Shown: one piece after another, positions 12,690-63,808 of the stretch
How positions within the stretch are numbered: position 1 is the first letter of the stretch
Layout: every line of letters starts with the position of its first letter
NCBI GenBank assembly: GCA_965246885.1
Contig: OZ251992.1
Coordinates: 288,001-352,000, forward strand
Reading direction: 5' to 3'
Source of the DNA: Abditibacterium sp.
GTDB taxonomy: Bacteria; Armatimonadota; Abditibacteriia; Abditibacteriales; Abditibacteriaceae
Length of the DNA stretch: 64,000 nucleotides
Translations under genes and position numbers: made by a program
Notes under the pieces: model-generated
Told to the model about the DNA's origin: nothing
The model's database searches: none
Seen by the model: the letters and a program-made list of their open reading frames with translations, nothing else

Positions 12690-12789
12690 GTGCGGGGAGG
12701 CGTTCTTCGCATGGCGGACGTCCGCCGTCGCATGGCGGGAGAAATTCTTCCGATGCGGGGAGGAGTTTTTCGGATGGCGGGAGGAAATT
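12690..12789 (+). repeat. Degenerate 21-bp tandem array (RTGCGGGGAGG family), 5 units
   Basis: Units start at 12690, 12711, 12732, 12753, 12774. Confidence 0.85.
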
Positions 12790-52307: not shown

Positions 52308-55300
52308 CTACCCGGCCTTAGCCGCCGTAAGCGCGAGCAACGCCGGGACGCCGCGCCGGTCGGCGCCGTAGCCGAAGTCAATGGTCGTGATTTCCACGTC
52401 GGGACGCGGGTTGTTCCACTGCATCGAATACGCGACGGCGCTTTGGTCAGTTCCGGCATAGGGCGCCACCCACGCGACCTGCGCGCCCGGAAGCGCCGCA
52501 ACAGGCGCGCTCTGCTTGTACGAATCCACATTCACTTGCGAGTAGACCGGGATGTTGACCGTTTGGCCGTCGGCGTAGTGGACGGTGTAGCGCGCCATTT
52601 CAAAGCGGCGACCATTCTTGCGGTCGTCGTCGTTCATCGGGCTGTCAATGCGCGCGGCCTGCAAGAAGAACAGCGCGTCCGCCTTCTGGCCGACCGGAAT
52701 ACCGCTCACATGGTCGGCCAGATTGCCCGGAACGCCGCCCCCACCGAGGATGACCGCCGTCGGCACGGGCGAAGTCTTGAAGTCGTAAATGTTGTAGCGC
52801 ACCCCCGCGAAGGTCTGGGCGCCCGTTGGCAACGCCGCGAAAGAGAAAGCCCGGTCGCCGAACCACCCCCCTTCTCCCCGGTAAGCGTTCGCCGCTTTGC
52901 CCAAGTCAACCGGCGTATACGCGAGGTTCGCTCCCGCGATGATGGTTTTCCCGCCGCTAAAGGGCGCGTGCAGATTGCGCAACAGGGCCGCCAGAATCGC
53001 CCGCTTTTTGCCCATGTTCTCCGGCACCGCTTCCGTATCCTTGTACAACACATTGTTCAGCACGAGGCCGCCCGGCCCTTGCGGGTATTCGACGAGCGCC
53101 CCGATGTTGAGCAGGGGCCGCACCTTTTGCGCGAAGTCGGCGGGTCGTTGGGCGAAAAGGGAAATGTTGTCAATGCCCAAATTCGGCGTAACGCTGGGAC
53201 GGGTTTCCCAGCCCGCGAGTTGCAGCGTGATGTCTTTGGCGCGGCGCGGCGGGTTGATGTCGAAAGTCTGCGCTTCGCCGTTAGGCACCGTGTTGAACGT
53301 GACCGTCCCATCGGGGAACACGAGGTTCACCTTGGTCGAGGCGAAGTAGTTCGTGTTGCCAATCCACGTCCAACGGCGGATGGTCTCCTCCTTCGGCAGG
53401 GAGATGGGGATGTCGAACGGCTTGCCGTCCTTGGGCGCGTCGAAGTTGATGATAAGGGGCCAGCCGTCGGCGTTGGTGAAGTTGTTGACGATGTTGCCAT
53501 ACGCCCAAAACGGCGACTTGCCAAACGGCGCGACGTCCTCCAAGTCCACGACATACGAAAAGGCGTCCTCGGCGGGATACTCCCCGGCCTGCCAGTCGAA
53601 GATGCGCTTGCCGCTTCCCATCACGATGTCCGAGGTGGACAGCCCCGCCGTGATGGGGCTACGCACCGCCGGAAACGTGACCTTCTCGCGCCCAAAGGGG
53701 CGCAGAACGTGGTTGAAGCCGACCAGCGTGTTGTACGCGGCGAGGCCATCCGGCGTCAGGTTGTTGAACACAATCCAGCCGCCGCCCGAAGTAAACGCCT
53801 TGACTTTGACGGTGTTGGCGGCGAGCGCCTGCAAATTGGCGGGCGAAGCGTCCATCACGGCAACCGAGCCGGACTTATTCAAGGCGGCGAGGGCATCCCC
53901 GGCCTTCTCGTATTGCACGCCGAGCGCGTCCATCGCTTTGGCAAGCGGCGCGTTGTCGCTTGCCACGAGGGTGACGGGATGAAAGACCAGCTTGTAGCTC
54001 GCGCCGTAGCCAATCATGTTCGCCAGCAGTTGCGCCGCGACGGGATTAGTGCCGAGCTTTTCGCCCACTGTCAGTTGCGACAACAGCATTAACCCCTGCC
54101 CCGCCGGAACTTCCACCAAGGCCGTCGAGCGCAGTCCGTCCTCGACCTGCAACAACGAGCGCCCGCCACTCGTGGGTTTGTCGTAGGCGTTGCGATACAA
54201 GACCGAGTCCGGCCCCCACGTTTGGAAGTCGCGCGCCCTCAGGCCGCGAAACACCGGATTGTCCAAGTCTTCGGGAAAGCCGATGCGCCCCTCGTTGCTT
54301 CCCGTCGCCATTTGCGCGGGCGTCGCTTGATAATGGAGCGGGTTCTTTTGCTCCAACACAATCACCGTCCGTCCGCTCGCCGCCCACGCCGCGAGCGCGC
54401 TCGATGTGCTCTGCGCCGCATCGAGCGCGTCTTTGCCGACGACCAGCACCTTGCCCGCATCGGGCAAGCTGTCCAGCCCCGCCAGCGCGGTGAACGGCAC
54501 CGACCGGCTTTGCAAAAACGCTTTCACCGTTCCAAGCGGATCGAATACCAGCAGGCCAGTCGCCGCCGTCCGCGAGCCAGTGACAGACGTGCGGGAATGG
54601 ATGGCGGACGTCTGGGACGCGACGACAGACGTGCGGGAATGAATGGCGGACGTCTGAAACTCATTCCCGGACGTCTGTCGAGCAGTGACGGATGTCTGGG
54701 AATGGACGGCGGACGCCGCTACTCGCACCGGGGGAAGAACGGACAGGGGCTTTTCGTCGCGGAACACTTCGCGTCCGTCTTTGGATAGCGAAAGCAGCAG
54801 CGTCCCCTCTTGGCGGGCGGCAACCGTCGGCATCGGGAGGGTGTCGTCGAACTTGCGGTTGGAGCCGGGCGCAAGAGTGGCCAGCGTGGTCTTGGACGCG
54901 ACCTTCTTGCCGTCAAGGGTGAGCGTCCACGTGAAGGAAAGCGGCTGCGTTTCGTGCGTGTCGTTGAAGATGCCGTAGGTGCGCTTGACCTTTTGGCCGG
55001 AGCCGAAGGAGGAGTCCCACTGGCGTTGCAAAACGGCGATGGGTTGCCACGAGTTGTAATACGCGCCGTCGGCGCTGCCCCACAGATGGAAAGCGGCGAC
55101 GCCGCTCCAGCGCATGCCCTCGGTCAGCATTTTGGAAATCAGGCCAACAGCCGGGCGCGCTTCGGCTTTGCCGAGCATGGCGCTCTCGCCACCTGCCGCC
55201 GCGAGCGTGGACAGGTTGTAGCCGTTGGAGTAAAAGACCTCGCCGAAAAAGAGCGGCTTTTGTTTTGTGATGGGCCAGCCCTGCGCGTGCGCGATTTGGG

Positions 55301-57446
55301 CGGACGGGAAGCCGAGGTTGTAACCCCAGTCGGGCAGTTGGCCCATTCCCGGCTCGATGTAGTGGATGCCGTAAACGGGCAAGGACTCATCGCCCAGCGC
55401 GTTGCCGCCGTCTAGCATCTGGGGGCGCGTCGGGTCAACTTGAGCGACGAGGTCGGCGCCCGTCTTGATGAACGGCGCGCTTTGCGGGGTGGGGCCGCGC
55501 CCGCGCCCGTCGTTGTCGTTGATGTAGGTGACTTCGTTCTCGATGCTCCAGATAAAGATGGAGGGGTGGTTGCGCTGCCCCTTGGCCCAAGCCGCGAGTT
55601 GGGTGTGCCAGTTGGCGAACAGCGCGGGGGTCAGGGTGTAATTGACGCCCTCGCCATCGAAAATGCCGGTGCGCCGCACGTTCATGCCGTGCGCGTCGAA
55701 AAAGTCGAGCGCCGCTTCGGGCGAAGCCAGTTCGTGCCAGCCGCCTTCGCCCCACAAGCGCACCATGTTGATGCCGCGCTTTTTAAGGCCCGCCAAGTCG
55801 CTTTGGGCATCGCTTCCAAACGAGGCGGTGTCGGCGCGGCCATACCAGTTGACGCCGTTGAGCTTGAAATCCGTGCCGCTCCAATCCCACTCGCGGAAGC
55901 CGAACTTGGTGGCGCGCTCGTCTACAGGCTTGCCACCATCGGCGAGGGTGGTGACGACTTGGTACTGCTGCGGGTGCGCGTCGTCGGGCCACCATAGTTT
56001 CGGGTTGGCCCACGCTTCGCTGAGCTTGACGACCTGCTCGGAGTTGGGCGCGAGGGTGACGGTGCGCGGCGCAAAGGTCTTCTCGGCTTTGCCGCCGCCC
56101 AACGGCACGACTTCGTTGCCCACGCTCACGGTGAGCGGCGCATCGGTCGGGTTATTAAGCGTGACTTCCAAGCCGAGGGTCTTGTTTTTGACCGAGGGAA
56201 TGGCGAAGACGTCCGAAGCATAGGCGCGGCCCGCCACGACAAGGGTGGGGGTTTGCAGGATGCCGTTGTCGGCGTGGTTCCACACGGGAAAATCGAACGC
56301 TTGCGAGATAAAGTTCTTCGAGGTAATCCAGTCGGTGGGAATGACAAAGCGGGTGCGCGCGTTGTTACCGCCGTCGGGCGTCAGGCCATAGTAGGTGTCC
56401 TTGATGCCAACCCACACTTCGTTGGTCTGGCCGGGTTTAATCGCTTTAGTGACGTCGCAATCCCACACCGCCAAGGGCGCTTTCGTCGTGCCGCACAGTT
56501 GCCCGTTGACGAAAACGCTGCCCAACATGTTGACGGCGGGCAAGTGCAACACGAACGAGCGGCCCGCCGCTTCTGCGGGAACCGCGACGCGCGTCCGCAA
56601 AAAGTAGCGGTGCGCGAAGGTGAGATCGGGGCGCTCGCGGTTGCGGTCGCCCGGCACGGCCATCGCGCGCCAGTTCAAGGTATCGGCGGCGGGCGCGGTG
56701 CGGATCGGCTCCGTCCTGTCCTGAACGAGGCCCTCGTCCCAGCGCCCGATTTGCCATTGCCCCGCGAGCGAGGTCGCCGTTTGAGCCGCGCCATCGGGCG
56801 CCTTCAAGGAGAACACCTGCGCTCCCGCCGCGCGGTCGGCGTCGGTCTGCCAACCCTTATCGCCCGGCTTGAACTTGCCGTTGGGGTGCCAGTCGCCCTT
56901 CACGACGGCGAGGGCGTCACCCACGTAGTGAATCTTTTGTGGTTTGCCGTCGGCGCCGTGCGCGTTGATGCGAATACGGAGGGTGTGCTTGCCCGCCGTC
57001 AAGTCCGCCTCGCCCATCGAAAGCCACGAGATGTGCGTCCAAAACGCGAGTTCCGTCAGGTCAAAGGTGGGGGCGTCGCGCCCGACCGACTGCCACGCGC
57101 CGCCGTCTACTTGGAAATCGAACGGCGGGCGGTCTACCTCGAAACCCAAACGGTTCCAGAAATGATAGTGCCCCGCCGAGGGCGCGCTGAAATCGTAGTC
57201 GAGCAACACGCCCTCTTTGGGGACGGTCTTTTCGACATCCTTGTCTTCTATATTGACGTTTAGCCAAGCATCGCCCGACATCGCGCCGCCAAAAGCATCG
57301 GCCTTGACGGGAACGTTGGCGTGCGTGGGCGCTTCGCCCTCAATCCAAGCGAAATCGGCGGCGTTCGCCGCTTTGCTCGCGCCGATGCCAAGGAACAAAA
57401 CCAAAGCCGCCCATCGGCGCGCGGAAGAAGTGCGAGGAGTATTCAT
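52308..57446 (-). CDS. Large secreted GH2-like glycoside hydrolase (multi-domain)
   Basis: Signal peptide after ATG 57446; VFVNGQ, PKLWWP, KFGFRE, RNHPSIFIWSIENE, DPTRP; C-terminal WNNPRPD module. Confidence 0.82.
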   Translation of the reverse strand: MNTPRTSSARRWAALVLFLGIGASKAANAADFAWIEGEAPTHANVPVKADAFGGAMSGDAWLNVNIEDKDVEKTVPKEGVLLDYDFSAPSAGHYHFWNRLGFEVDRPPFDFQVDGGAWQSVGRDAPTFDLTELAFWTHISWLSMGEADLTAGKHTLRIRINAHGADGKPQKIHYVGDALAVVKGDWHPNGKFKPGDKGWQTDADRAAGAQVFSLKAPDGAAQTATSLAGQWQIGRWDEGLVQDRTEPIRTAPAADTLNWRAMAVPGDRNRERPDLTFAHRYFLRTRVAVPAEAAGRSFVLHLPAVNMLGSVFVNGQLCGTTKAPLAVWDCDVTKAIKPGQTNEVWVGIKDTYYGLTPDGGNNARTRFVIPTDWITSKNFISQAFDFPVWNHADNGILQTPTLVVAGRAYASDVFAIPSVKNKTLGLEVTLNNPTDAPLTVSVGNEVVPLGGGKAEKTFAPRTVTLAPNSEQVVKLSEAWANPKLWWPDDAHPQQYQVVTTLADGGKPVDERATKFGFREWDWSGTDFKLNGVNWYGRADTASFGSDAQSDLAGLKKRGINMVRLWGEGGWHELASPEAALDFFDAHGMNVRRTGIFDGEGVNYTLTPALFANWHTQLAAWAKGQRNHPSIFIWSIENEVTYINDNDGRGRGPTPQSAPFIKTGADLVAQVDPTRPQMLDGGNALGDESLPVYGIHYIEPGMGQLPDWGYNLGFPSAQIAHAQGWPITKQKPLFFGEVFYSNGYNLSTLAAAGGESAMLGKAEARPAVGLISKMLTEGMRWSGVAAFHLWGSADGAYYNSWQPIAVLQRQWDSSFGSGQKVKRTYGIFNDTHETQPLSFTWTLTLDGKKVASKTTLATLAPGSNRKFDDTLPMPTVAARQEGTLLLSLSKDGREVFRDEKPLSVLPPVRVAASAVHSQTSVTARQTSGNEFQTSAIHSRTSVVASQTSAIHSRTSVTGSRTAATGLLVFDPLGTVKAFLQSRSVPFTALAGLDSLPDAGKVLVVGKDALDAAQSTSSALAAWAASGRTVIVLEQKNPLHYQATPAQMATGSNEGRIGFPEDLDNPVFRGLRARDFQTWGPDSVLYRNAYDKPTSGGRSLLQVEDGLRSTALVEVPAGQGLMLLSQLTVGEKLGTNPVAAQLLANMIGYGASYKLVFHPVTLVASDNAPLAKAMDALGVQYEKAGDALAALNKSGSVAVMDASPANLQALAANTVKVKAFTSGGGWIVFNNLTPDGLAAYNTLVGFNHVLRPFGREKVTFPAVRSPITAGLSTSDIVMGSGKRIFDWQAGEYPAEDAFSYVVDLEDVAPFGKSPFWAYGNIVNNFTNADGWPLIINFDAPKDGKPFDIPISLPKEETIRRWTWIGNTNYFASTKVNLVFPDGTVTFNTVPNGEAQTFDINPPRRAKDITLQLAGWETRPSVTPNLGIDNISLFAQRPADFAQKVRPLLNIGALVEYPQGPGGLVLNNVLYKDTEAVPENMGKKRAILAALLRNLHAPFSGGKTIIAGANLAYTPVDLGKAANAYRGEGGWFGDRAFSFAALPTGAQTFAGVRYNIYDFKTSPVPTAVILGGGGVPGNLADHVSGIPVGQKADALFFLQAARIDSPMNDDDRKNGRRFEMARYTVHYADGQTVNIPVYSQVNVDSYKQSAPVAALPGAQVAWVAPYAGTDQSAVAYSMQWNNPRPDVEITTIDFGYGADRRGVPALLALTAAKAG
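54561..54720 (-). repeat. 21-bp CAGACGTC-family array inserted in frame inside the GH2-like CDS
   Basis: Encodes HSQTSVT ARQTSGN EFQTSAI HSRTSVV ASQTSAI HSRTSVT GSRTAAT; DNA units match the 41.4-kb array. Confidence 0.85.
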
Positions 57447-57569: not shown

Positions 57570-57598
57570 ACCCGCGACGAAGAACACGACTTCCCGCC
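57570..57598 (+). repeat. 29-bp cassette-boundary repeat, copy A
   Basis: ACCCGCGACGAAGAACACGACTTCCCGCC; copies at 58244, 58507, 59197. Confidence 0.85.
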
Positions 57599-57600
57599 GA

Positions 57601-57981
57601 TTAGGGGTAGGGCAACAGGTTCAAGCCGCCAATGAATTTGTAGTCGCGCTGGTTTTTGGAGATGAGCGGTTCGCCGTGAATGAGAGCCGTTGCTGCGATG
57701 AGGCTGTCGGCGATGAGTAAGCCGTGACTAAGGCGGTAAAGACGCAGCAACTCGACCGACTTGTCCGAGACCGCTTCGTCCAACGGCAGAATTTGGAACT
57801 GCTTCAGGAACCCGTCGAGGGCGCCGAGTTCGCCCTTGTTGCGGACGCCGACCAAAAGTTCCATCTGCGTCACAACACTGATGGCGGGGGAGGAGTTCTG
57901 CTGGATGCCCTTCAAACAATCGAGCGCCTCTGGGCCGCCGCGTCCGGCATCAATGAGAATGTCGGTGTCAATGAGGGTCAC
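57601..57981 (-). CDS. vapC: VapC-family PIN-domain toxin
   Basis: LIDTDILID, SVVTQMELLVG, ADSLIAATAL, SKNQRDY; GTGA overlap with antitoxin. Confidence 0.9.
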   Translation of the reverse strand: MTLIDTDILIDAGRGGPEALDCLKGIQQNSSPAISVVTQMELLVGVRNKGELGALDGFLKQFQILPLDEAVSDKSVELLRLYRLSHGLLIADSLIAATALIHGEPLISKNQRDYKFIGGLNLLPYP

Positions 57982-58208
57982 GATTCGCCCCACTCCGAGC
58001 GGCGCAACTCGCGCACGAACCCGGTGCTGTCTTCCATCTCGCCCCGGTCGCGCCACATTCCGATGAACGGCTCGTCTTCCAGAGGTGCGGACGGTGCCAC
58101 CGCCGCCCGCGCGTGTTTGAAGCGCAAAAACGCGACGAACTCATCCACTTGGCGCCGCGCTTCGGGCGGCAACGCGCCATATTCTTCCGTGATACTCTGG
58201 GCTGTCAT
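57978..58208 (-). CDS. Putative antitoxin (DUF2281-like)
   Basis: LPPEARRQVDEFVAFL...FIGMWRDR..M; directly upstream of the PIN gene. Confidence 0.8.
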   Translation of the reverse strand: MTAQSITEEYGALPPEARRQVDEFVAFLRFKHARAAVAPSAPLEDEPFIGMWRDRGEMEDSTGFVRELRRSEWGES

Positions 58209-58243
58209 GCCTTCCAGTGTGGCCCAAACAAAACCGAACTTCA

Positions 58244-58272
58244 ACCCGCGCCGAAGAACACCCCCTCCCGCC
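58244..58272 (+). repeat. 29-bp cassette-boundary repeat, copy B
   Basis: 25/29 identical to copy A. Confidence 0.8.
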
Positions 58273-58287
58273 CGGAACAGCGCGCAA

Positions 58288-58471
58288 CTTGCCTTGGCCA
58301 ACTGTCAGTTGGCCTTGGCCGATTGTCGTTTGGCCTTGGCCAACCCACTTAATTACTTGGCCAGTTGGCAATTGGCCAACTCATGTCGCCAGTTGACCAA
58401 GGTGCGCCCGCAGTTGGCCAAGGCCAAACGAGACAATCGGCCAAGGCGAACTGACAGTTGGCCAAGGCAAG
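58288..58471. repeat. Foldback element of 21-bp TTGGCC units with about 57-bp inverted arms
   Basis: 58288-58344 matches the reverse complement of 58413-58471 with one mismatch and a 2-nt indel. Confidence 0.9.
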
Positions 58472-58506
58472 ATTTGACCTCCTCAGTCGTCGGAGCATGG
58501 CTCCGG

Positions 58507-58614
58507 GCCAATGGAGAAGAACACCCTTTCCCGCCCGGCCAATGGGAAGTCGTCGTTTCCGCCACCAACGCCGCCGGAGATGGCCCGATGTCCAACACCG
58601 TCACCGTCACGTGA
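58507..58614 (+). pseudogene. Fibronectin type III C-terminal gene remnant 1 (contains boundary repeat copy C)
   Basis: EEHPFPPGQWEVVVSATNAAGDGPMSNTVTVT*. Confidence 0.65.
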
Positions 58615-58626
58615 ACCACGAAACAA

Positions 58627-58656
58627 AACGGCCCGCCAAGAAATTGGCGGGCTGTT
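58627..58656. terminator. Bidirectional terminator-like hairpin
   Basis: AACGGCCCGCCAA-GAAA-TTGGCGGGCTGTT between convergent ends. Confidence 0.7.
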
Positions 58657-58662
58657 GTTGGG

Positions 58663-58959
58663 TCAAAAGCGCCAACTCGTCGGGTCGCTCCGGTCGTGGT
58701 AACAGGCGATGATCGTGACTGTGTTTCGCGCCGCGTCGAAGACGGAAAACAGCGAGTAGGGCGCGCGTCGCAGCACCAATCGGCGCACATCGTCAGCCCA
58801 CATTACGCCCGATTCGGGGAATTGTGCGAGTTGCTCGACCTTGACATCCACCGCGTCCCAAAAATCGCGCACCGAATTGGACGACCGCTCGGCCAACTCT
58901 TGCGTGATGTCCTCAATTTGCTTTTCGGCGCGGCGCAAGAACAAGACGGTGGCGCTCAT
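58663..58959 (-). CDS. RelE/ParE-family toxin
   Basis: AEKQIEDI, LAQFPESG, VRRLVLRRAPYSLF, IIACYHDRSDP. Confidence 0.88.
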   Translation of the reverse strand: MSATVLFLRRAEKQIEDITQELAERSSNSVRDFWDAVDVKVEQLAQFPESGVMWADDVRRLVLRRAPYSLFSVFDAARNTVTIIACYHDRSDPTSWRF

Positions 58960-59174
58960 ATTCGGGCCAGCAACTGCGCTTTGATGTCGCTCCAAGGCCG
59001 CGCGTCGTGCGGGTTCTCGCGGTATTCGCGGATGGCCTCGCGCAAGTCGGCTTCCTGTTCGGGCGACAAGGGCGGCACTTCTTCTGTGGTCAGTCGCTCG
59101 ATAACCTCGACACGCGCGGCGTCATCCAATTCCATCACGGCTTCAAAGACTTGCTCTTTGGTCAAAACAGGCAT
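58956..59174 (-). CDS. Addiction-module antitoxin
   Basis: 72-aa acidic protein, LSPEQ...RPWSDIKAQL; ATGA overlap with toxin. Confidence 0.85.
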   Translation of the reverse strand: MPVLTKEQVFEAVMELDDAARVEVIERLTTEEVPPLSPEQEADLREAIREYRENPHDARPWSDIKAQLLARI

Positions 59175-59196
59175 ACCTTTATTTTACCCCGCCCAA

Positions 59197-59310
59197 ACCC
59201 GCGACGAAGAACCCGACTTGCCGCCAGGAACAGGGGAAGTCGTCGTCCTCGCCACCAACGCGGCGGGCGATGGCCCCTATTCCAACAGCGTCATCGTGAC
59301 GGTTGGGTGA
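59197..59310 (+). pseudogene. Fibronectin type III C-terminal gene remnant 2 (starts with boundary repeat copy D)
   Basis: TRDEEPDLPPGTGEVVVLATNAAGDGPYSNSVIVTVG*; copy D is 27/29 identical to copy A. Confidence 0.65.
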
Positions 59311-59322
59311 ACCACGAAACGA

Positions 59323-59352
59323 AACAGCCCGCCGAGAAATTGGCGGGTTGTT
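59323..59352. terminator. Terminator-like hairpin, duplicate of 58627-58656
   Basis: AACAGCCCGCCGA-GAAA-TTGGCGGGTTGTT. Confidence 0.7.
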
Positions 59353-59563
59353 GTGGTTGCTACCCCGTCGCAAAGTTTCGTAAATTAATCAAGCATGAAA
59401 AAGCACGTCCCTTTGCCTCGCCTCGCTCTTGCCTTGATTTTGGTGCCGCTCTTGACCTCGCTTGCATCCTCTCAAGAAACGATGAGCAGAAAAGACCGCT
59501 TGGCGCTGGAATCGGCCAAACGTCAAGACGCCTCATCTGCCCGAAAGATGATGAAGATTATTA

Positions 59564-60418
59564 ACCAGTGGTGCGGGTAGTTCAGAGGGCGAAGTCGGCA
59601 AGTTGGAGTTTGACTTTGCCCGTCCAGTTGATGCAGATGTTGAAGGCGGCGACCACATAGGCGAGGCGCGCACGTAGGGCGGGCCATGTGCGGTTGCTCA
59701 TCCTCTTGAGTCCAAGCACCCGGGTGAAGAGCGAGAAGATGGTCTCAATGAGCATCCGCTCGTTCCACTTGCCGCGCTTGCACACCAGCAAGTTGTCCGG
59801 GTCGCCTTCGTGGGCGTGAAAGCCTTGGTCGCTCAACACGATCATCTCCTCGCGCACGCGGTCAATCATCGCGTGGAAGGCGCTGTCATGGCACGCGGCA
59901 CCGGCACAAAGCCACCTCACGATCTGACCTTGGCTGTTGCAAAGCACAACGAACTTGGCGCCCACGATCCATCGGTGGTTGGAGAGGGTCTTGCGCCCGA
60001 TCTGGCGGGGGCTACGTCCTTGGCGGCGCGGGTGCAACAGTTCGATACCTAAGCTGTCGCACACGCCAAACAAGGTGGGGTCGGCGAGAAAATGCTGGGT
60101 TTGCTCTGCGTGTTGCTCGAACAAGCGGAACAAGCGCGTGCGCTCTGGCAAGCGGGGGAAAAGCTCCTTCAACTCGCGTTTAGCCCAGCGATAAAAGGCG
60201 CGATTGCCCCCGCCCTTCAAAGCGTGAAGCAGGCCCAAGGTCACCACTTCGCTGGGATGAAGATGGGCTAAGGGGTGTTTGAGGGCAGCCAAGGCGTCGT
60301 CCACACGGCAAAACAGAGACACGGTAAAATCTTGAAGGGTCACAGGTCGCTCCTTGAGGTTTGGTCACCATCAAGATTACGCTGACCTGTGGCCTCACCG
60401 CAAACCCGCACCACTGGT
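59564..60418 (-). mobile_element. IS982-family-like insertion sequence (855 bp)
   Basis: 15-bp perfect terminal IR ACCAGTGGTGCGGGT (59564-59578 / 60404-60418) flanked by TATTA direct repeats. Confidence 0.88.
59582..60343 (-). CDS. DDE transposase (IS982-like)
   Basis: LFCRVDD, SEVVT, FPRLPERTRL.R, DS, SDQGF, R..IETIFS. Confidence 0.85.
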   Translation of the reverse strand: MTLQDFTVSLFCRVDDALAALKHPLAHLHPSEVVTLGLLHALKGGGNRAFYRWAKRELKELFPRLPERTRLFRLFEQHAEQTQHFLADPTLFGVCDSLGIELLHPRRQGRSPRQIGRKTLSNHRWIVGAKFVVLCNSQGQIVRWLCAGAACHDSAFHAMIDRVREEMIVLSDQGFHAHEGDPDNLLVCKRGKWNERMLIETIFSLFTRVLGLKRMSNRTWPALRARLAYVVAAFNICINWTGKVKLQLADFAL

Positions 60419-60693
60419 TATTAGGCTGAATGGCGATTACCCCTATGTTTCATCTATACGCCCAGTTGTCTTGGAGGTCTGGGAGCCATCTATTATCCTC
60501 CACATAAAGATGAAGCCTTCGTGGACAAAGCTGTCTCCTTCCAAGAAGAGGAAAGCTACTCAGTCATTGCTCAAACTGTGGGATTCTTTTTGCTCGATGC
60601 AAAGTCCGCCGAGTTATGCTTGGATTAGAATCTACGACTCAGGAGGGCAACAGGTGGGCGAGGCAAGTAAAGGGAGTGAGTAAGCCACTCATC

Positions 60694-60727
60694 AACAGCC
60701 CGCCGTTCTCTCGAACGGCGGGCTGTT
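60694..60727. terminator. Bidirectional terminator hairpin
   Basis: AACAGCCCGCCGTTC-TCTC-GAACGGCGGGCTGTT between convergent genes. Confidence 0.75.
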
Positions 60728-60749: not shown

Positions 60750-61229
60750 TTAGAAAATTGTTCTGTGTGTTCTATAAAAGGCGTGGGCCTTTTCGGATTG
60801 ATCTTTCCAAAACGCAACTTTGGCTGCATCATTTTTAGTCTCGTCATCAAACTTAGTCAAAGCGCCTATTTTATACATGAGATTGTAAAACCCGTCAGTT
60901 GGCATCCCATTTTGTTTACCAACACCAAAACAGCTTGCAAAAAATTGGTGTTCTATGTAGCTATGACGCGAGATAAACCCCATATAATCTCCCAATAAAT
61001 CTTGATCGAATCCATTCCAGCTTCGAGTGTCTATCTGGAATGGCACACCGAGCCTGATGTTGGGCAGACAAAAATCGACACCTTGCACTAAATTGGAATA
61101 GTTAATCCAGTTCTCTTTGTGTGACCTTGCTGCACTGGCGATTCGTGCTTCCAAAGCGGTCACAGCATTCCAGTCTTTAGGCGCATATTTCCATTCTATG
61201 CTCAGCAATTTCTCAGCGATTGGGTTCAT
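60750..61229 (-). CDS. Hypothetical protein, AT-rich (probably horizontally acquired)
   Basis: 159-aa ORF with GGAGG RBS; visibly lower GC than flanks. Confidence 0.75.
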   Translation of the reverse strand: MNPIAEKLLSIEWKYAPKDWNAVTALEARIASAARSHKENWINYSNLVQGVDFCLPNIRLGVPFQIDTRSWNGFDQDLLGDYMGFISRHSYIEHQFFASCFGVGKQNGMPTDGFYNLMYKIGALTKFDDETKNDAAKVAFWKDQSEKAHAFYRTHRTIF

Positions 61230-61342: not shown

Positions 61343-62830
61343 CTACCAACTCAGCGACTTTGTAAACGCGGTCGCTTCGGTTTCGTAGGTGTGGAAGGGG
61401 TTGCGGAGTTCGAGGTGGCGGTCTTTGTCGACGCGCACCCAGTCCCAGTCAATGAGGTAGCGGCCCCATTTGTGGGCGATGAGTTGAGAAATCACTTCGG
61501 CGCGGCCTTTGGCGCGGGTGTTTTGCGGCGGGAGTTTGGTGGCGTTTTCGATTTGCTCGTCGGTCAGCATCCGGTGGGCGTCGCCCAACTCTTCGAGGCC
61601 GAAATAGAGGCCCGTCGCGGGGTTGATGTTGTGGTATTCGAGGTCGAGCGAATGGAGAACGTCGTCGCCCCAGCCGACTTTCTCGGAGTCCATATATTCG
61701 AGCAGCATCTTCTTTTTTGCCACCCAGTCGAGCTTGTCGGCTAAACGCATCGGGTCGCTTTCCAAGAGGGCGAGGGTGGATTCCCACTCGTAAATCGCCT
61801 CGTCGGTCTGGGCGTCTTTGCCTTTGAGATGCTTTTGCGCGGCTTCGAGATAGAAGCGTTGCAGGTCTACCGCGCTCATGGTTTTGCCGCCCGTTCCGCG
61901 CACGGGCCACTTCTGGGTTTGGTCGCGCGAGACGGATTTGAGGGCCGACAGCGCGTCTTCGAGGCGCACGTCTTGGGGCACGACTTTCATGTCGAGCAGG
62001 TCGAGGACGAGGCACGTCGTCGCCACTTTGAGCCACGTCGCGTATTCCATCATGTTCGGCTCGCCATACAGGACGTGCAAGCGGTGCAAGTCAGAGTAGT
62101 CGTAATACGAATCGCGCTTGGGGTTGATGATGGCGCGGTTGAAGCGCACGCGCGACGACACGGTGTTGACGATGTGATCGGCGCGCTGCGACAGTTGGAA
62201 ATCAACGGTGTCGTCTATCTCGACGCCATAGAAATCGGCGACCCACATCGTGTCCACCTCGTGTTCGCCCACGCTCATAATGTTGCGCCGGAAGTCGTGG
62301 CGGTTCAGCTTGTGCCCGCCGACGCGCCCGACACCCGCGAAAATCTGCCGCGTCACCAGAAACGGCATTAGCAAACTCAGCGAGCCGCGAAACGCCGACG
62401 CGGAAATATCTACCAGATAGTTCTCGTGGCAACCGAAGGTGTGCCCGCCGAAGTGGTCAATCGAGTTGGCGTAGAACGCCACATCCTCGGACAGTTCCAA
62501 ATCTTCGAGGAGGGATTGTAAAATGACGCGCCCCGCGCGGTCAAAGGCCACCACATCGCGCCAGTTGGTGCATTCGGGCGTGGCGTATTCCTCGTGCGAG
62601 CCGACGGCATCCACATACAAACGCCCGCCGTTGATCAAAAACCCGCCCGAACGCGCCGGTTCAAACGCATAATCGCGCGCGTGCATATCGAGCAGCCCGA
62701 TCTTTTTCCGCAGAAAAGCGTGGTCTTTGACCGCCTCGACAATGCGCTCACTCCCGCCGCGCCCGCCAATGCGGTCGTTGCGAACCATACAGCCAAACTC
62801 GGTTTCAATCCCGACGATGCGTTGTTCCAT
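61343..62830 (-). CDS. pafA: Pup/UBact-protein ligase, PafA family
   Basis: RIVGIETEFG, FL.NGGRLYVD.VGSH.EYATPEC, GCHENYL, PFLVTRQIFAG.G, SQRAD, RLHV..GE.NM, LDWVAKK, LDLEYH, PP.NTRA..R, NPF. Confidence 0.85.
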   Translation of the reverse strand: MEQRIVGIETEFGCMVRNDRIGGRGGSERIVEAVKDHAFLRKKIGLLDMHARDYAFEPARSGGFLINGGRLYVDAVGSHEEYATPECTNWRDVVAFDRAGRVILQSLLEDLELSEDVAFYANSIDHFGGHTFGCHENYLVDISASAFRGSLSLLMPFLVTRQIFAGVGRVGGHKLNRHDFRRNIMSVGEHEVDTMWVADFYGVEIDDTVDFQLSQRADHIVNTVSSRVRFNRAIINPKRDSYYDYSDLHRLHVLYGEPNMMEYATWLKVATTCLVLDLLDMKVVPQDVRLEDALSALKSVSRDQTQKWPVRGTGGKTMSAVDLQRFYLEAAQKHLKGKDAQTDEAIYEWESTLALLESDPMRLADKLDWVAKKKMLLEYMDSEKVGWGDDVLHSLDLEYHNINPATGLYFGLEELGDAHRMLTDEQIENATKLPPQNTRAKGRAEVISQLIAHKWGRYLIDWDWVRVDKDRHLELRNPFHTYETEATAFTKSLSW

Positions 62831-62886: not shown

Positions 62887-63168
62887 TTACTTGCCGCGTT
62901 TGAGGAGGCGCCAGCCACCACGGATCAGCAAAATTCCGAAATAACAAAAGACCAAGCCCATCAATGCTGAGCCACTCACCGCAGAAAGACTCGCAGGACG
63001 CGGCGTAGGAATTCCGGCAAAACGGAACGCGATTCCGGTCATGCAAATACCACCCAGAACAAAAAGTGAGAAGCCCTGAAATACATGAGTCAGCCCCTTC
63101 CAGTTAGTCCAAAAAGTGCGAGACGGTTTTGAACGCGGGTCGGCGATGGGGGGCGGTTCGGGGTTCAT
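62887..63168 (-). CDS. Small 2-TM membrane protein (MNPEPPPIAD...)
   Basis: Paralogous to 63324-63608 (shared N-terminus, G..H, G.LLIR.G.R). Confidence 0.7.
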   Translation of the reverse strand: MNPEPPPIADPRSKPSRTFWTNWKGLTHVFQGFSLFVLGGICMTGIAFRFAGIPTPRPASLSAVSGSALMGLVFCYFGILLIRGGWRLLKRGK

Positions 63169-63194
63169 GGCGAGGCGTCGGAGTTTATGGGCAG

Positions 63195-63312
63195 CGCGTC
63201 CGGGAGGACGCTTGGCGAAGCCGGATGCCGGGGATTTCATATCCCCGAACACCAACGGGGGTATAAAACCCCCGGCATCCGGGCGCAAGCGCCCAAGCGT
63301 CCTGCCGGACGC
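63195..63312. repeat. REP/REPIN-like nested palindromic element
   Basis: Outer IR GCGTCCGG..GGACGCTTGG / CCAAGCGTCC..CCGGACGC; inner CCGGATGCCGGGG / CCCCGGCATCCGG with two small hairpins. Confidence 0.7.
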
Positions 63313-63323
63313 GGCGCCGCGAT

Positions 63324-63608
63324 TCACCGCCCGTACTTCCAGATTCGCAGCCCATGCCGGATGAGCAGGAAGCCCAACGCGCACAGAACCAGCGAGAACA
63401 CACCCACTACGGCGTAGCCAAAAGTGTTGCCGAGCGTCATTCGTGGCATGAGGTCGCCGGGTATGAAAAACCCCAACAACAACGTCGGCACGCCAAAGCA
63501 AATGTGAACCAGCCCCAACAACCAAGTCCAAACCGTGCGCGGCGCCGTTTCGATGGGTAGGGGCGGCGCCCCTTGCGCGTCGGCAATGGGCGGCGGGTCG
63601 GGGTTCAT
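63324..63608 (-). CDS. Small 2-TM membrane protein (MNPDPPPIAD...)
   Basis: 94 aa, two hydrophobic helices. Confidence 0.7.
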   Translation of the reverse strand: MNPDPPPIADAQGAPPLPIETAPRTVWTWLLGLVHICFGVPTLLLGFFIPGDLMPRMTLGNTFGYAVVGVFSLVLCALGFLLIRHGLRIWKYGR

Positions 63609-63623
63609 GGGATAGCACGCGGG

Positions 63624-63788
63624 CTAATAACCTTGGGTGCACATCGCGTAAATGAAGCAGCCAGCCCCGATAATATAGGCCAGAAAGAAGGCGGCAAGGA
63701 GAATCACTGCGCGGCTCACTGGCGGTCGTTGCGGCGGGTCGGGCGGCGCCCCATGCGGGTTGGCAATGGGCGGCGGTTCGGCGGGCAC
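63624..63788 (-). CDS. 54-aa single-TM protein (MPAEPPPIAN...), not in the ORF track
   Basis: GTG start 6 nt after TATACT; MPAEPPPIANPHGAPPDPPQRPPVSRAVILLAAFFLAYIIGAGCFIYAMCTQGY*. Confidence 0.65.
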   Translation of the reverse strand: MPAEPPPIANPHGAPPDPPQRPPVSRAVILLAAFFLAYIIGAGCFIYAMCTQGY

Positions 63789-63808
63789 CGCCGAAGTATA
63801 CGGACGAA

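Follow-up and report, generated by a model that had tools for sequence, protein, structure and literature searches.

How small toxin–antitoxin (TA) and restriction modules enter chromosomes without an integrase is the wider question to which repeat-bounded gene arrays speak. Integron and CALIN arrays consist of short cassettes bounded by repeats, among them reverse-oriented TA pairs that carry their own promoters, and depend on IntI and the attC hairpin. In pdif modules, sites of ~28 bp bound TA modules and the recombinase acts in trans. Accretion at gene 3′ ends is exemplified by e14 in icd and SCC at rlmH, and illegitimate joins assisted by homology have GC-rich hot spots.

Insertion with long target duplication, in the available text of PMC2853133, places addictive modules between direct repeats of >30 bp that often overlap the 3′ end of a gene, with no other mobile element; the cases are single events involving restriction-modification genes, the repeats vary in length and most cases come from naturally competent species. 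Additive flexible genomic islands (fGIs; PMC4898812) and integrase-free hotspots (PMC5635113) show tell-tale target repeats that are, in the accessible portions of both sources, mostly tRNA or tmRNA ends. The parts available of PMC2884548 and PMC6382021 describe homology-assisted illegitimate recombination, and those of PMC5704250 the tandem accretion of ICE, IME and CIME at a gene 3′ end, which requires an integrase and element-side att arms.

The locus described here, an array of small modules beside pafA in an Abditibacterium genome, is a variable cassette hotspot of known kind, its twist being a near-fixed breakpoint in a rare accessory gene. It resembles integron and CALIN arrays in its short repeat-bounded cassettes and reverse-oriented TA pairs with their own promoters, but IntI and the attC hairpin were not found and the repeat consists of coding sequence and a terminator. 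The sites are direct and gene-derived and by eye show no dif arm consensus, and a dif/pdif origin was rejected. Direct repeats, gene 3′ ends, addictive cargo and an insert without a mobility gene are shared with long target duplication as presented in the available text of PMC2853133; unlike there, the locus is serial, TA pairs make up most of its cargo and the left edge in the FN3-type gene is nearly fixed. Tell-tale target repeats are likewise shared with the systems of PMC4898812 and PMC5635113, and relatives carry differing cassette sets at one locus together with partial repeats of the target gene, as in fGIs; what is repeated here, in contrast to those descriptions, is the end of a rare accessory protein gene, of which no intact copy turned up in the genome. 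So far as their available text goes, PMC2853133 and PMC5635113 are precedents for the explanation that we prefer. The likeness to the accretion of PMC5704250, in its accessible part, is limited by the finding of neither integrase nor element-side arms. With nine comparable junctions in one gene, the locus is a serial record, and it would represent a new route of cassette capture if an enzyme acts and plainly exemplify a known kind of scar if none does.

A repeat-bounded array beside pafA

The window is a stretch of 64,000 nt (contig OZ251992.1, positions 288,001 to 352,000). Repeat analysis of the window bore out four direct copies of a 29-bp site, starting at 57570, 58244, 58507 and 59197 (Table 1), with identities to copy 1 of 86%, 69% and 93% for copies 2, 3 and 4, and translation confirmed that the copies encode the same peptide, both as originally predicted. 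When the 29-mer was searched against the whole 3.56-Mb genome with up to seven mismatches, copies 1, 2 and 4 were the only matches and are unique to the array; copy 3, at nine mismatches, is at background, contig C1 having 40 matches of that level, and it aligns to the 29-mer from base 10 onward only. We regard copy 3 as real because it continues for 96 nt at 76% identity to copy 4. A degenerate site pattern gave three matches in the window versus none in 100 shuffles. The repeats are real and, within the genome, present solely at this array. Misassembly of the array is unlikely because a public contig covering 55000–59333, which may be the window's own source, shows zero differences to it.

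The usual repeating unit is the site with a 110-nt tail and a terminator, not the 29-mer. Copies 3 and 4 share 149 bp at 78% identity around the ParE pair, copies 2 and 4 a 38-bp match, and copies 1 and 2 just 29 bp. Compared with an intact relative of the parent gene on metagenome contig L029, which matches copy 1 at 29/29, copy 4 has a better preserved site than tail (27/29 vs. 54/82, P = 7e-4, a value inflated by the way in which the site and L029 had been identified).

Between the copies lie the antitoxin–VapC and antitoxin–ParE pairs that had been predicted; family matches, those of the antitoxins below cut-off, and gene overlap suggest that both are type II TA modules. The −10-like elements placed upstream of the TA starts can be seen by eye and were missed by a consensus scan. 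The long foldback of 21-bp units between copies 2 and 3 proved real (40-nt arms 98% complementary; fold z = −12.6). No mobility gene was detected between copies 1 and 4 in the open reading frame (ORF) list or by Pfam, and cargo blocks in the window are <1.5 kb. An IS982-like element outside copy 4 interrupts a small ORF starting at 59395 and has a second copy, 99.9% identical, at C1:2.65 Mb. Behind a 159-aa orphan gene is a hairpin of the same terminator family (60694–60727). Upstream of pafA, at 62887–63790, three or four short tandem membrane-protein ORFs have an N-terminal NPxPPPIAD motif in common, and metagenome contig L025 carries similar ORFs.

Table 1. Coordinates of the array, its neighbors and similar scars (window positions unless a contig is given; left run, bp matching the L029 gene leftward of the site)
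Feature	Position	Strand	Remarks
GH2-type glycoside hydrolase gene	52308..57446	-	Pfam GH2 domains; left neighbor of array
Copy 1	57570..57598	+	Bare 29-bp core trimmed on both sides; 29/29 to L029 intact gene; left run 0; tail absent
VapC/PIN toxin	57601..57981	-	PF01850, E 6e-14; NF047959 below cut-off
VapB-like antitoxin	57978..58208	-	NF050009, E 7e-4, below cut-off; partner of VapC homologs in relatives
Copy 2	58244..58280	+	Core and ~9 bp of copy-4-type tail; 25/29 to L029
Foldback of 21-bp units	58288..58471		Likely upstream element of parent FN3 module
Copy 3	58507..58614	+	Degenerate site and FN3 tail; ~500 bp of the gene's 5′ part gone after foldback
Terminator-like hairpin	58627..58656		Between converging copy-3 tail and ParE
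ParE-family toxin	58663..58959	-	PF05016, E 1e-6, over cut-off
Antitoxin of ParE pair	58956..59174	-	PF09720 (Unstab_antitox), E 7e-4, below cut-off
Copy 4	59190..59310	+	Site and FN3 tail; against L029, site 27/29, tail 54/82, left run 7
Terminator-like hairpin	59323..59352		3′ of copy 4
IS982-like element	59559..60423	-	Terminal inverted repeat; DDE and NF033520 below cut-off
159-aa low-GC orphan cargo	60750..61229	-	Pfam match absent; GC 0.44–0.50
pafA (Pup ligase)	61343..62830	-	PF03136; conserved right anchor of hotspot
Tail and terminator scar, rplO	G000:C1:1793991-1795471		
Tail and terminator scar, groEL	G000:C1:663403-666639		
Tail and terminator scar, pfk	G000:C1:767608-769605		

The parent FN3 gene family

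By sequence, the repeats are 3′ remnants, comprising about the last 37 codons and the terminator, of a gene for a predicted helical plus FN3 protein of ~200 residues, the site encoding the start of the last ~37 residues. A search with the tail in 27 family genomes gave one open frame, a 201-aa gene in genome G036 (L015) with a foldback of 21-bp period directly upstream and a hairpin behind; the model of its protein (pLDDT 86.7) has three helices followed by a beta-sandwich, and its best Foldseek match in the PDB is FN3con. The Pfam fn3 match of the intact relative (E 5e-5) is just under cut-off, and the tblastn-type matches have E values of 2e-5 and 6e-4. A Pfam search of the array tail alone gave no match; the FN3 identity of the tails is assigned because of the intact relative, with its tblastn-type, Pfam and Foldseek matches, and through it the predicted derivation of the repeats from an FN3-type gene is supported. 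Since a foldback is the usual upstream neighbor of the FN3 family, the one in the array reads as an upstream remnant of the parent module rather than as one of the cassettes, and the interval between it and copy 3 is best read as having lost ~500 bp of the parent gene.

No intact parent gene was found in this genome by tblastn, motif or hidden Markov model (HMM) searches, and a 214-aa foldback-preceded protein encoded at C1:1.336 Mb scored a probability of 0.6% and was rejected as the parent. The family is rare, its alignment matching in 7/401 phylum genomes, and within this sample clear tail-only remnants occur in this genome only. A search of 1.84 billion proteins for FN3 relatives was swamped by multi-FN3 proteins. 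A search of openly available articles gave no literature on the helical plus FN3 family or on the array. Small genes for helical plus FN3-like proteins of 200–310 aa, each with a foldback in ~21- or ~42-bp units ahead of it, occur in G036 (L015, L023, L024) and in this genome (G000:C1:1.336 Mb, L141:1830-2750), where the gene adjoins a Y1 (RAYT-like) gene.

Tail scars at pafA in relatives and at unrelated genes

The locus is a real gene-gain hotspot where relatives carry other genes between the same leftovers, and in this the prediction of a cassette-accumulating interval held. The interval proposed for comparison, GH2–pafA, gave way to pafA–dhs, which flanks the cargo in relatives: pafA is present in 26/27 family genomes, and in the nearest relatives variable cargo lies between it and a gene that we take to be deoxyhypusine synthase (dhs). 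In this genome dhs is at 916 kb (C1:916367), 570 kb from the pafA neighborhood (C1:349343). The pafA–dhs neighborhood is broken here, and the left end of the array borders a GH2 sugar-use region.

The content behind pafA is different in each of the window, L025 and genomes G003, G010 and G011, and all five contain repeated tails or units. G010 (L092:9910-13347) has two extra pafA 3′ fragments of ~149 and 69 nt with cargo between them, G011 (L086) an extra pafA tail of 35 nt with terminator, and metagenome contig L028 one of 27 nt with terminator, the stranded tails of the three each lying behind different cargo. An FN3 HMM gave no match in 16 pafA stretches from 15 relatives. The closest relative, G003 (pafA 96%), contains a noncoding unit of ~130 bp three times in the same orientation (L081:1-140; L096:1-135 and 1400-1485) that adjoins a homologous antitoxin and ends in the same terminator as the array. 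Aligned to the FN3 tails without its terminator, the unit beat all but 0–3 of 500 shuffles in two of the three copies and did not in the third, and it lacks bases 1–14 of the site, about half of the 29-mer, in our alignment; the unit is probably homologous to the FN3 tail, as a decayed descendant. No empty allele, an intact FN3 gene without cargo, was found; the L029 gene is intact, but its 1.3-kb contig has other cargo.

For 2,492 long ORFs the 3′ end was compared with the genome, counting same-strand copies across the stop codon ≤15 kb downstream, and nine rows were left once the CRISPR region had been dropped: three clean copies of tail and terminator around small cargo, this array, and five paralogs or palindromic repeats. 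The clean scars are at genes that we recognize from their sequence as rplO (21 nt; antitoxin and PIN-like cargo), pfk (40 nt) and groEL (an HNH pair). The groEL scar is common to G010, where its trimming differs, indicating that scar junctions are inherited and eroded. In G003 the TA pair linked to rplO is found one gene farther downstream, and a tail copy is absent. Four other genes of the lineage bear scars that can serve as controls, so that insertion anchored by homology and capture at a specific site make distinct, testable predictions. A CRISPR array of 214 repeats is located at C1:2529000-2544500 of this genome, and none of its spacers matched the FN3 array loci.

Junction geometry and possible routes of cargo entry

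An exact 28-letter pattern recovered five stretches on four metagenome contigs (L025, L027, L028 and L029), which may stem from few organisms and of which one, L025, lies beside pafA. On L025 a DUF2335 pair lies between two copies of site, tail and terminator (167 bp, 96% alike); a Bpu10I-type restriction system and pafA come next, in the order and orientation of the window. The L025 tails have no synonymous and five nonsynonymous codon changes, a pattern like that of dead DNA. L028 has two site copies, with a DUF2335 pair and an antitoxin/PIN-like pair assigned by reading of the sequence, and L027 has one copy next to a ParE-type pair. On L029 the FN3 gene is intact to the contig limit and is followed by the terminator and Vsr. 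In 12 other genomes of the genus the site had only background-level matches at two or fewer mismatches. A genome-contig scan gave 11 loci, with L060 as the only close family member, viral contigs gave two weak matches and none for the hairpin pattern, and the plasmids searched gave no match.

Measured against L029, the match to the left of the site runs for 0 bp in copy 1 and L027, 1 bp in copy 2 and L028b, 4 bp in L028a, 7 bp in copy 4, 8 bp in L025b and at least 30 bp in L025a, and copy 3 begins at +10, so that 7/9 truncated copies start no more than 8 bp from a single point of the ~620-bp gene. Copies 1, 2 and 4 served to define the site and the metagenome loci were picked for holding it, so more-trimmed copies could have been missed; this choice of loci does not explain the clustering of left edges against longer remnants. 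The junctions have at least six different left flanks, the DUF2335 cargo reaches the site via two different upstream lengths, and copies 1 and 2 are cut back from both sides to the same core. The prediction that one segment of the FN3 gene is the recombination point stands for the left breakpoints; the role of the 29-mer as a recombinase site is unsupported, and we doubt it because pafA tails range from 27 to ~150 nt, scars occur at three unrelated genes and the G003 unit is present.

The explanation that we prefer, with a little more than even confidence, is that insertions with long target duplication took place one after another at an additive hotspot, anchored by homology and followed by RecA-type shuffling and decay. 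An FN3 module consisting of foldback, gene and terminator would once have lain convergent to pafA. DNA from a relative, probably taken up by transformation, would have been anchored by RecA-type pairing with the FN3 gene, the unit of tail and terminator or pafA; comEC is present in the genome. The nonhomologous side would have been joined via a few matching bases, adding a promoter-bearing TA or restriction module and duplicating the old gene end, and may have been joined repeatedly at an accidental inverted-repeat pair of this FN3 allele acting as a hot spot. Once two units were present, ordinary recombination between them could shuffle, add and delete cargo, and TA and restriction modules, being addictive, would be hard to lose as the tails decayed, leaving stubs of 29–38 bp and a deleted parent gene. 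We favor this reading because it accounts for the scars at pafA, rplO, pfk and groEL, the ragged edges of 0–8 bp, the G003 unit and the missing integrase. Direct repeats of >30 bp around an insert of <20 kb are found in copies 3 and 4 (149 bp, 78%) and in L025 (167 bp, 96%). The preferred reading has more difficulty with the sharp left edge in FN3, with copies 1 and 2 having been trimmed on both sides and with the site of copy 4 being better preserved than its tail. Tails of pafA vary in length (27 to ~149 nt), as do the repeats of PMC2853133, whereas FN3 tails largely do not, with 7/9 beginning within 8 bp.

The tight left breakpoints would be expected if the site were an attachment point cut by an enzyme in trans, a reading that we consider unlikely. 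Circles of site, tail, terminator and cargo might insert themselves in the FN3 gene and regenerate its end, in the manner of elements targeting gene 3′ ends, a version consistent with the intact L029 gene followed by terminator and cargo, or one-armed recombination might capture promoter-bearing cargo. Candidate enzymes are encoded in the genome, namely three tyrosine recombinases and five Y1 HUH proteins. One reverse transcriptase is encoded there too. Breakpoints also coincide with inverted repeats of the L029 gene: the left breakpoints map to the 8-bp spacer of an imperfect 11-8-11 repeat (8/11) or right next to it, and copies 1 and 2 end on the right within or adjacent to the loop of an 11-7-11 repeat (10/11). 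These were the best two of 1,269 position-by-spacer combinations in a post hoc scan of 452 nt, in which two others reached 8/11. Repeats so placed around the 29-mer fit either recombinase cores or accidental hairpin hot spots, and the stronger hairpin may be accidental because it follows from the D-F-P and W-E-V codons.

Several results weigh against an attachment site cut in trans. Cargo-side flanks have no common arm motif or left arm, the site is absent from the flanks of the Y1 and reverse transcriptase genes, the G003 unit has multiplied lacking half of the site, and pafA bears the same scar at variable length. Folding either strand of the site, or of site plus tail, gave no attC-like structure in nine copies, the folds being no better than those of shuffles (36 folds, z −1.7 to +1.4), and the attC end motifs RYYYAAC and GTTRRRY are inconsistent among copies by eye. 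None of the tyrosine recombinases passes the IntI cut-off (TIGR02249 best 42 bits vs. 265, in a genome 92.7% complete), serine recombinases/resolvases and IS110 had no match in the genome, and no integrase ORF was recognized in the window stretch or on the short contigs L025–L029, in agreement with the prediction of an array without attC, IntI or a recombinase gene in the window. Two contig sets contained no excision joints at any site; they come from one study and contigs drop rare variants, hence this is evidence neither way. The more specific proposal, that a host enzyme encoded elsewhere cuts within the 11-8-11 repeat and joins it to DNA 10–23 bp upstream of foreign promoters, seems improbable to us; if true, the FN3 tail and terminator would form a reusable capture and shuffling site, integron-like without attC or IntI, on a platform tied to an undescribed foldback–FN3 module.

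More doubtful still is the possibility that whole foldback–FN3–terminator modules once alternated with TA pairs and that deletions removed their 5′ parts. The common stop point would then reflect a core kept for another function, such as a protein-binding or promoter element for divergent cargo, or one early truncation spread by gene conversion. Copy 3 still lies behind its foldback, L025 retains one longer remnant, G036 holds several dispersed members of the family, and copies 2 and 4 have derived bases in common and appear mosaic, all of which would suit such a history. Tandem intact paralogs were seen in no locus, however, the scars at pafA, rplO, pfk and groEL are left unexplained, and the −10-like box of the cargo lies at a variable distance of 10 to 23 bp from the site, which rules out a fixed −35 role for the site. 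Retro-copying was rejected on the clustered left edges and the cargo's retention of DNA upstream of the −10 box.

Foldbacks are widespread in this genome. One of 21-bp units lies in frame within the GH2 gene (54557–54715), the window has further 21-bp arrays at 12732, 20877, 25968, 41421 and 49136, and a crude scan counted 141 long foldbacks on C1.
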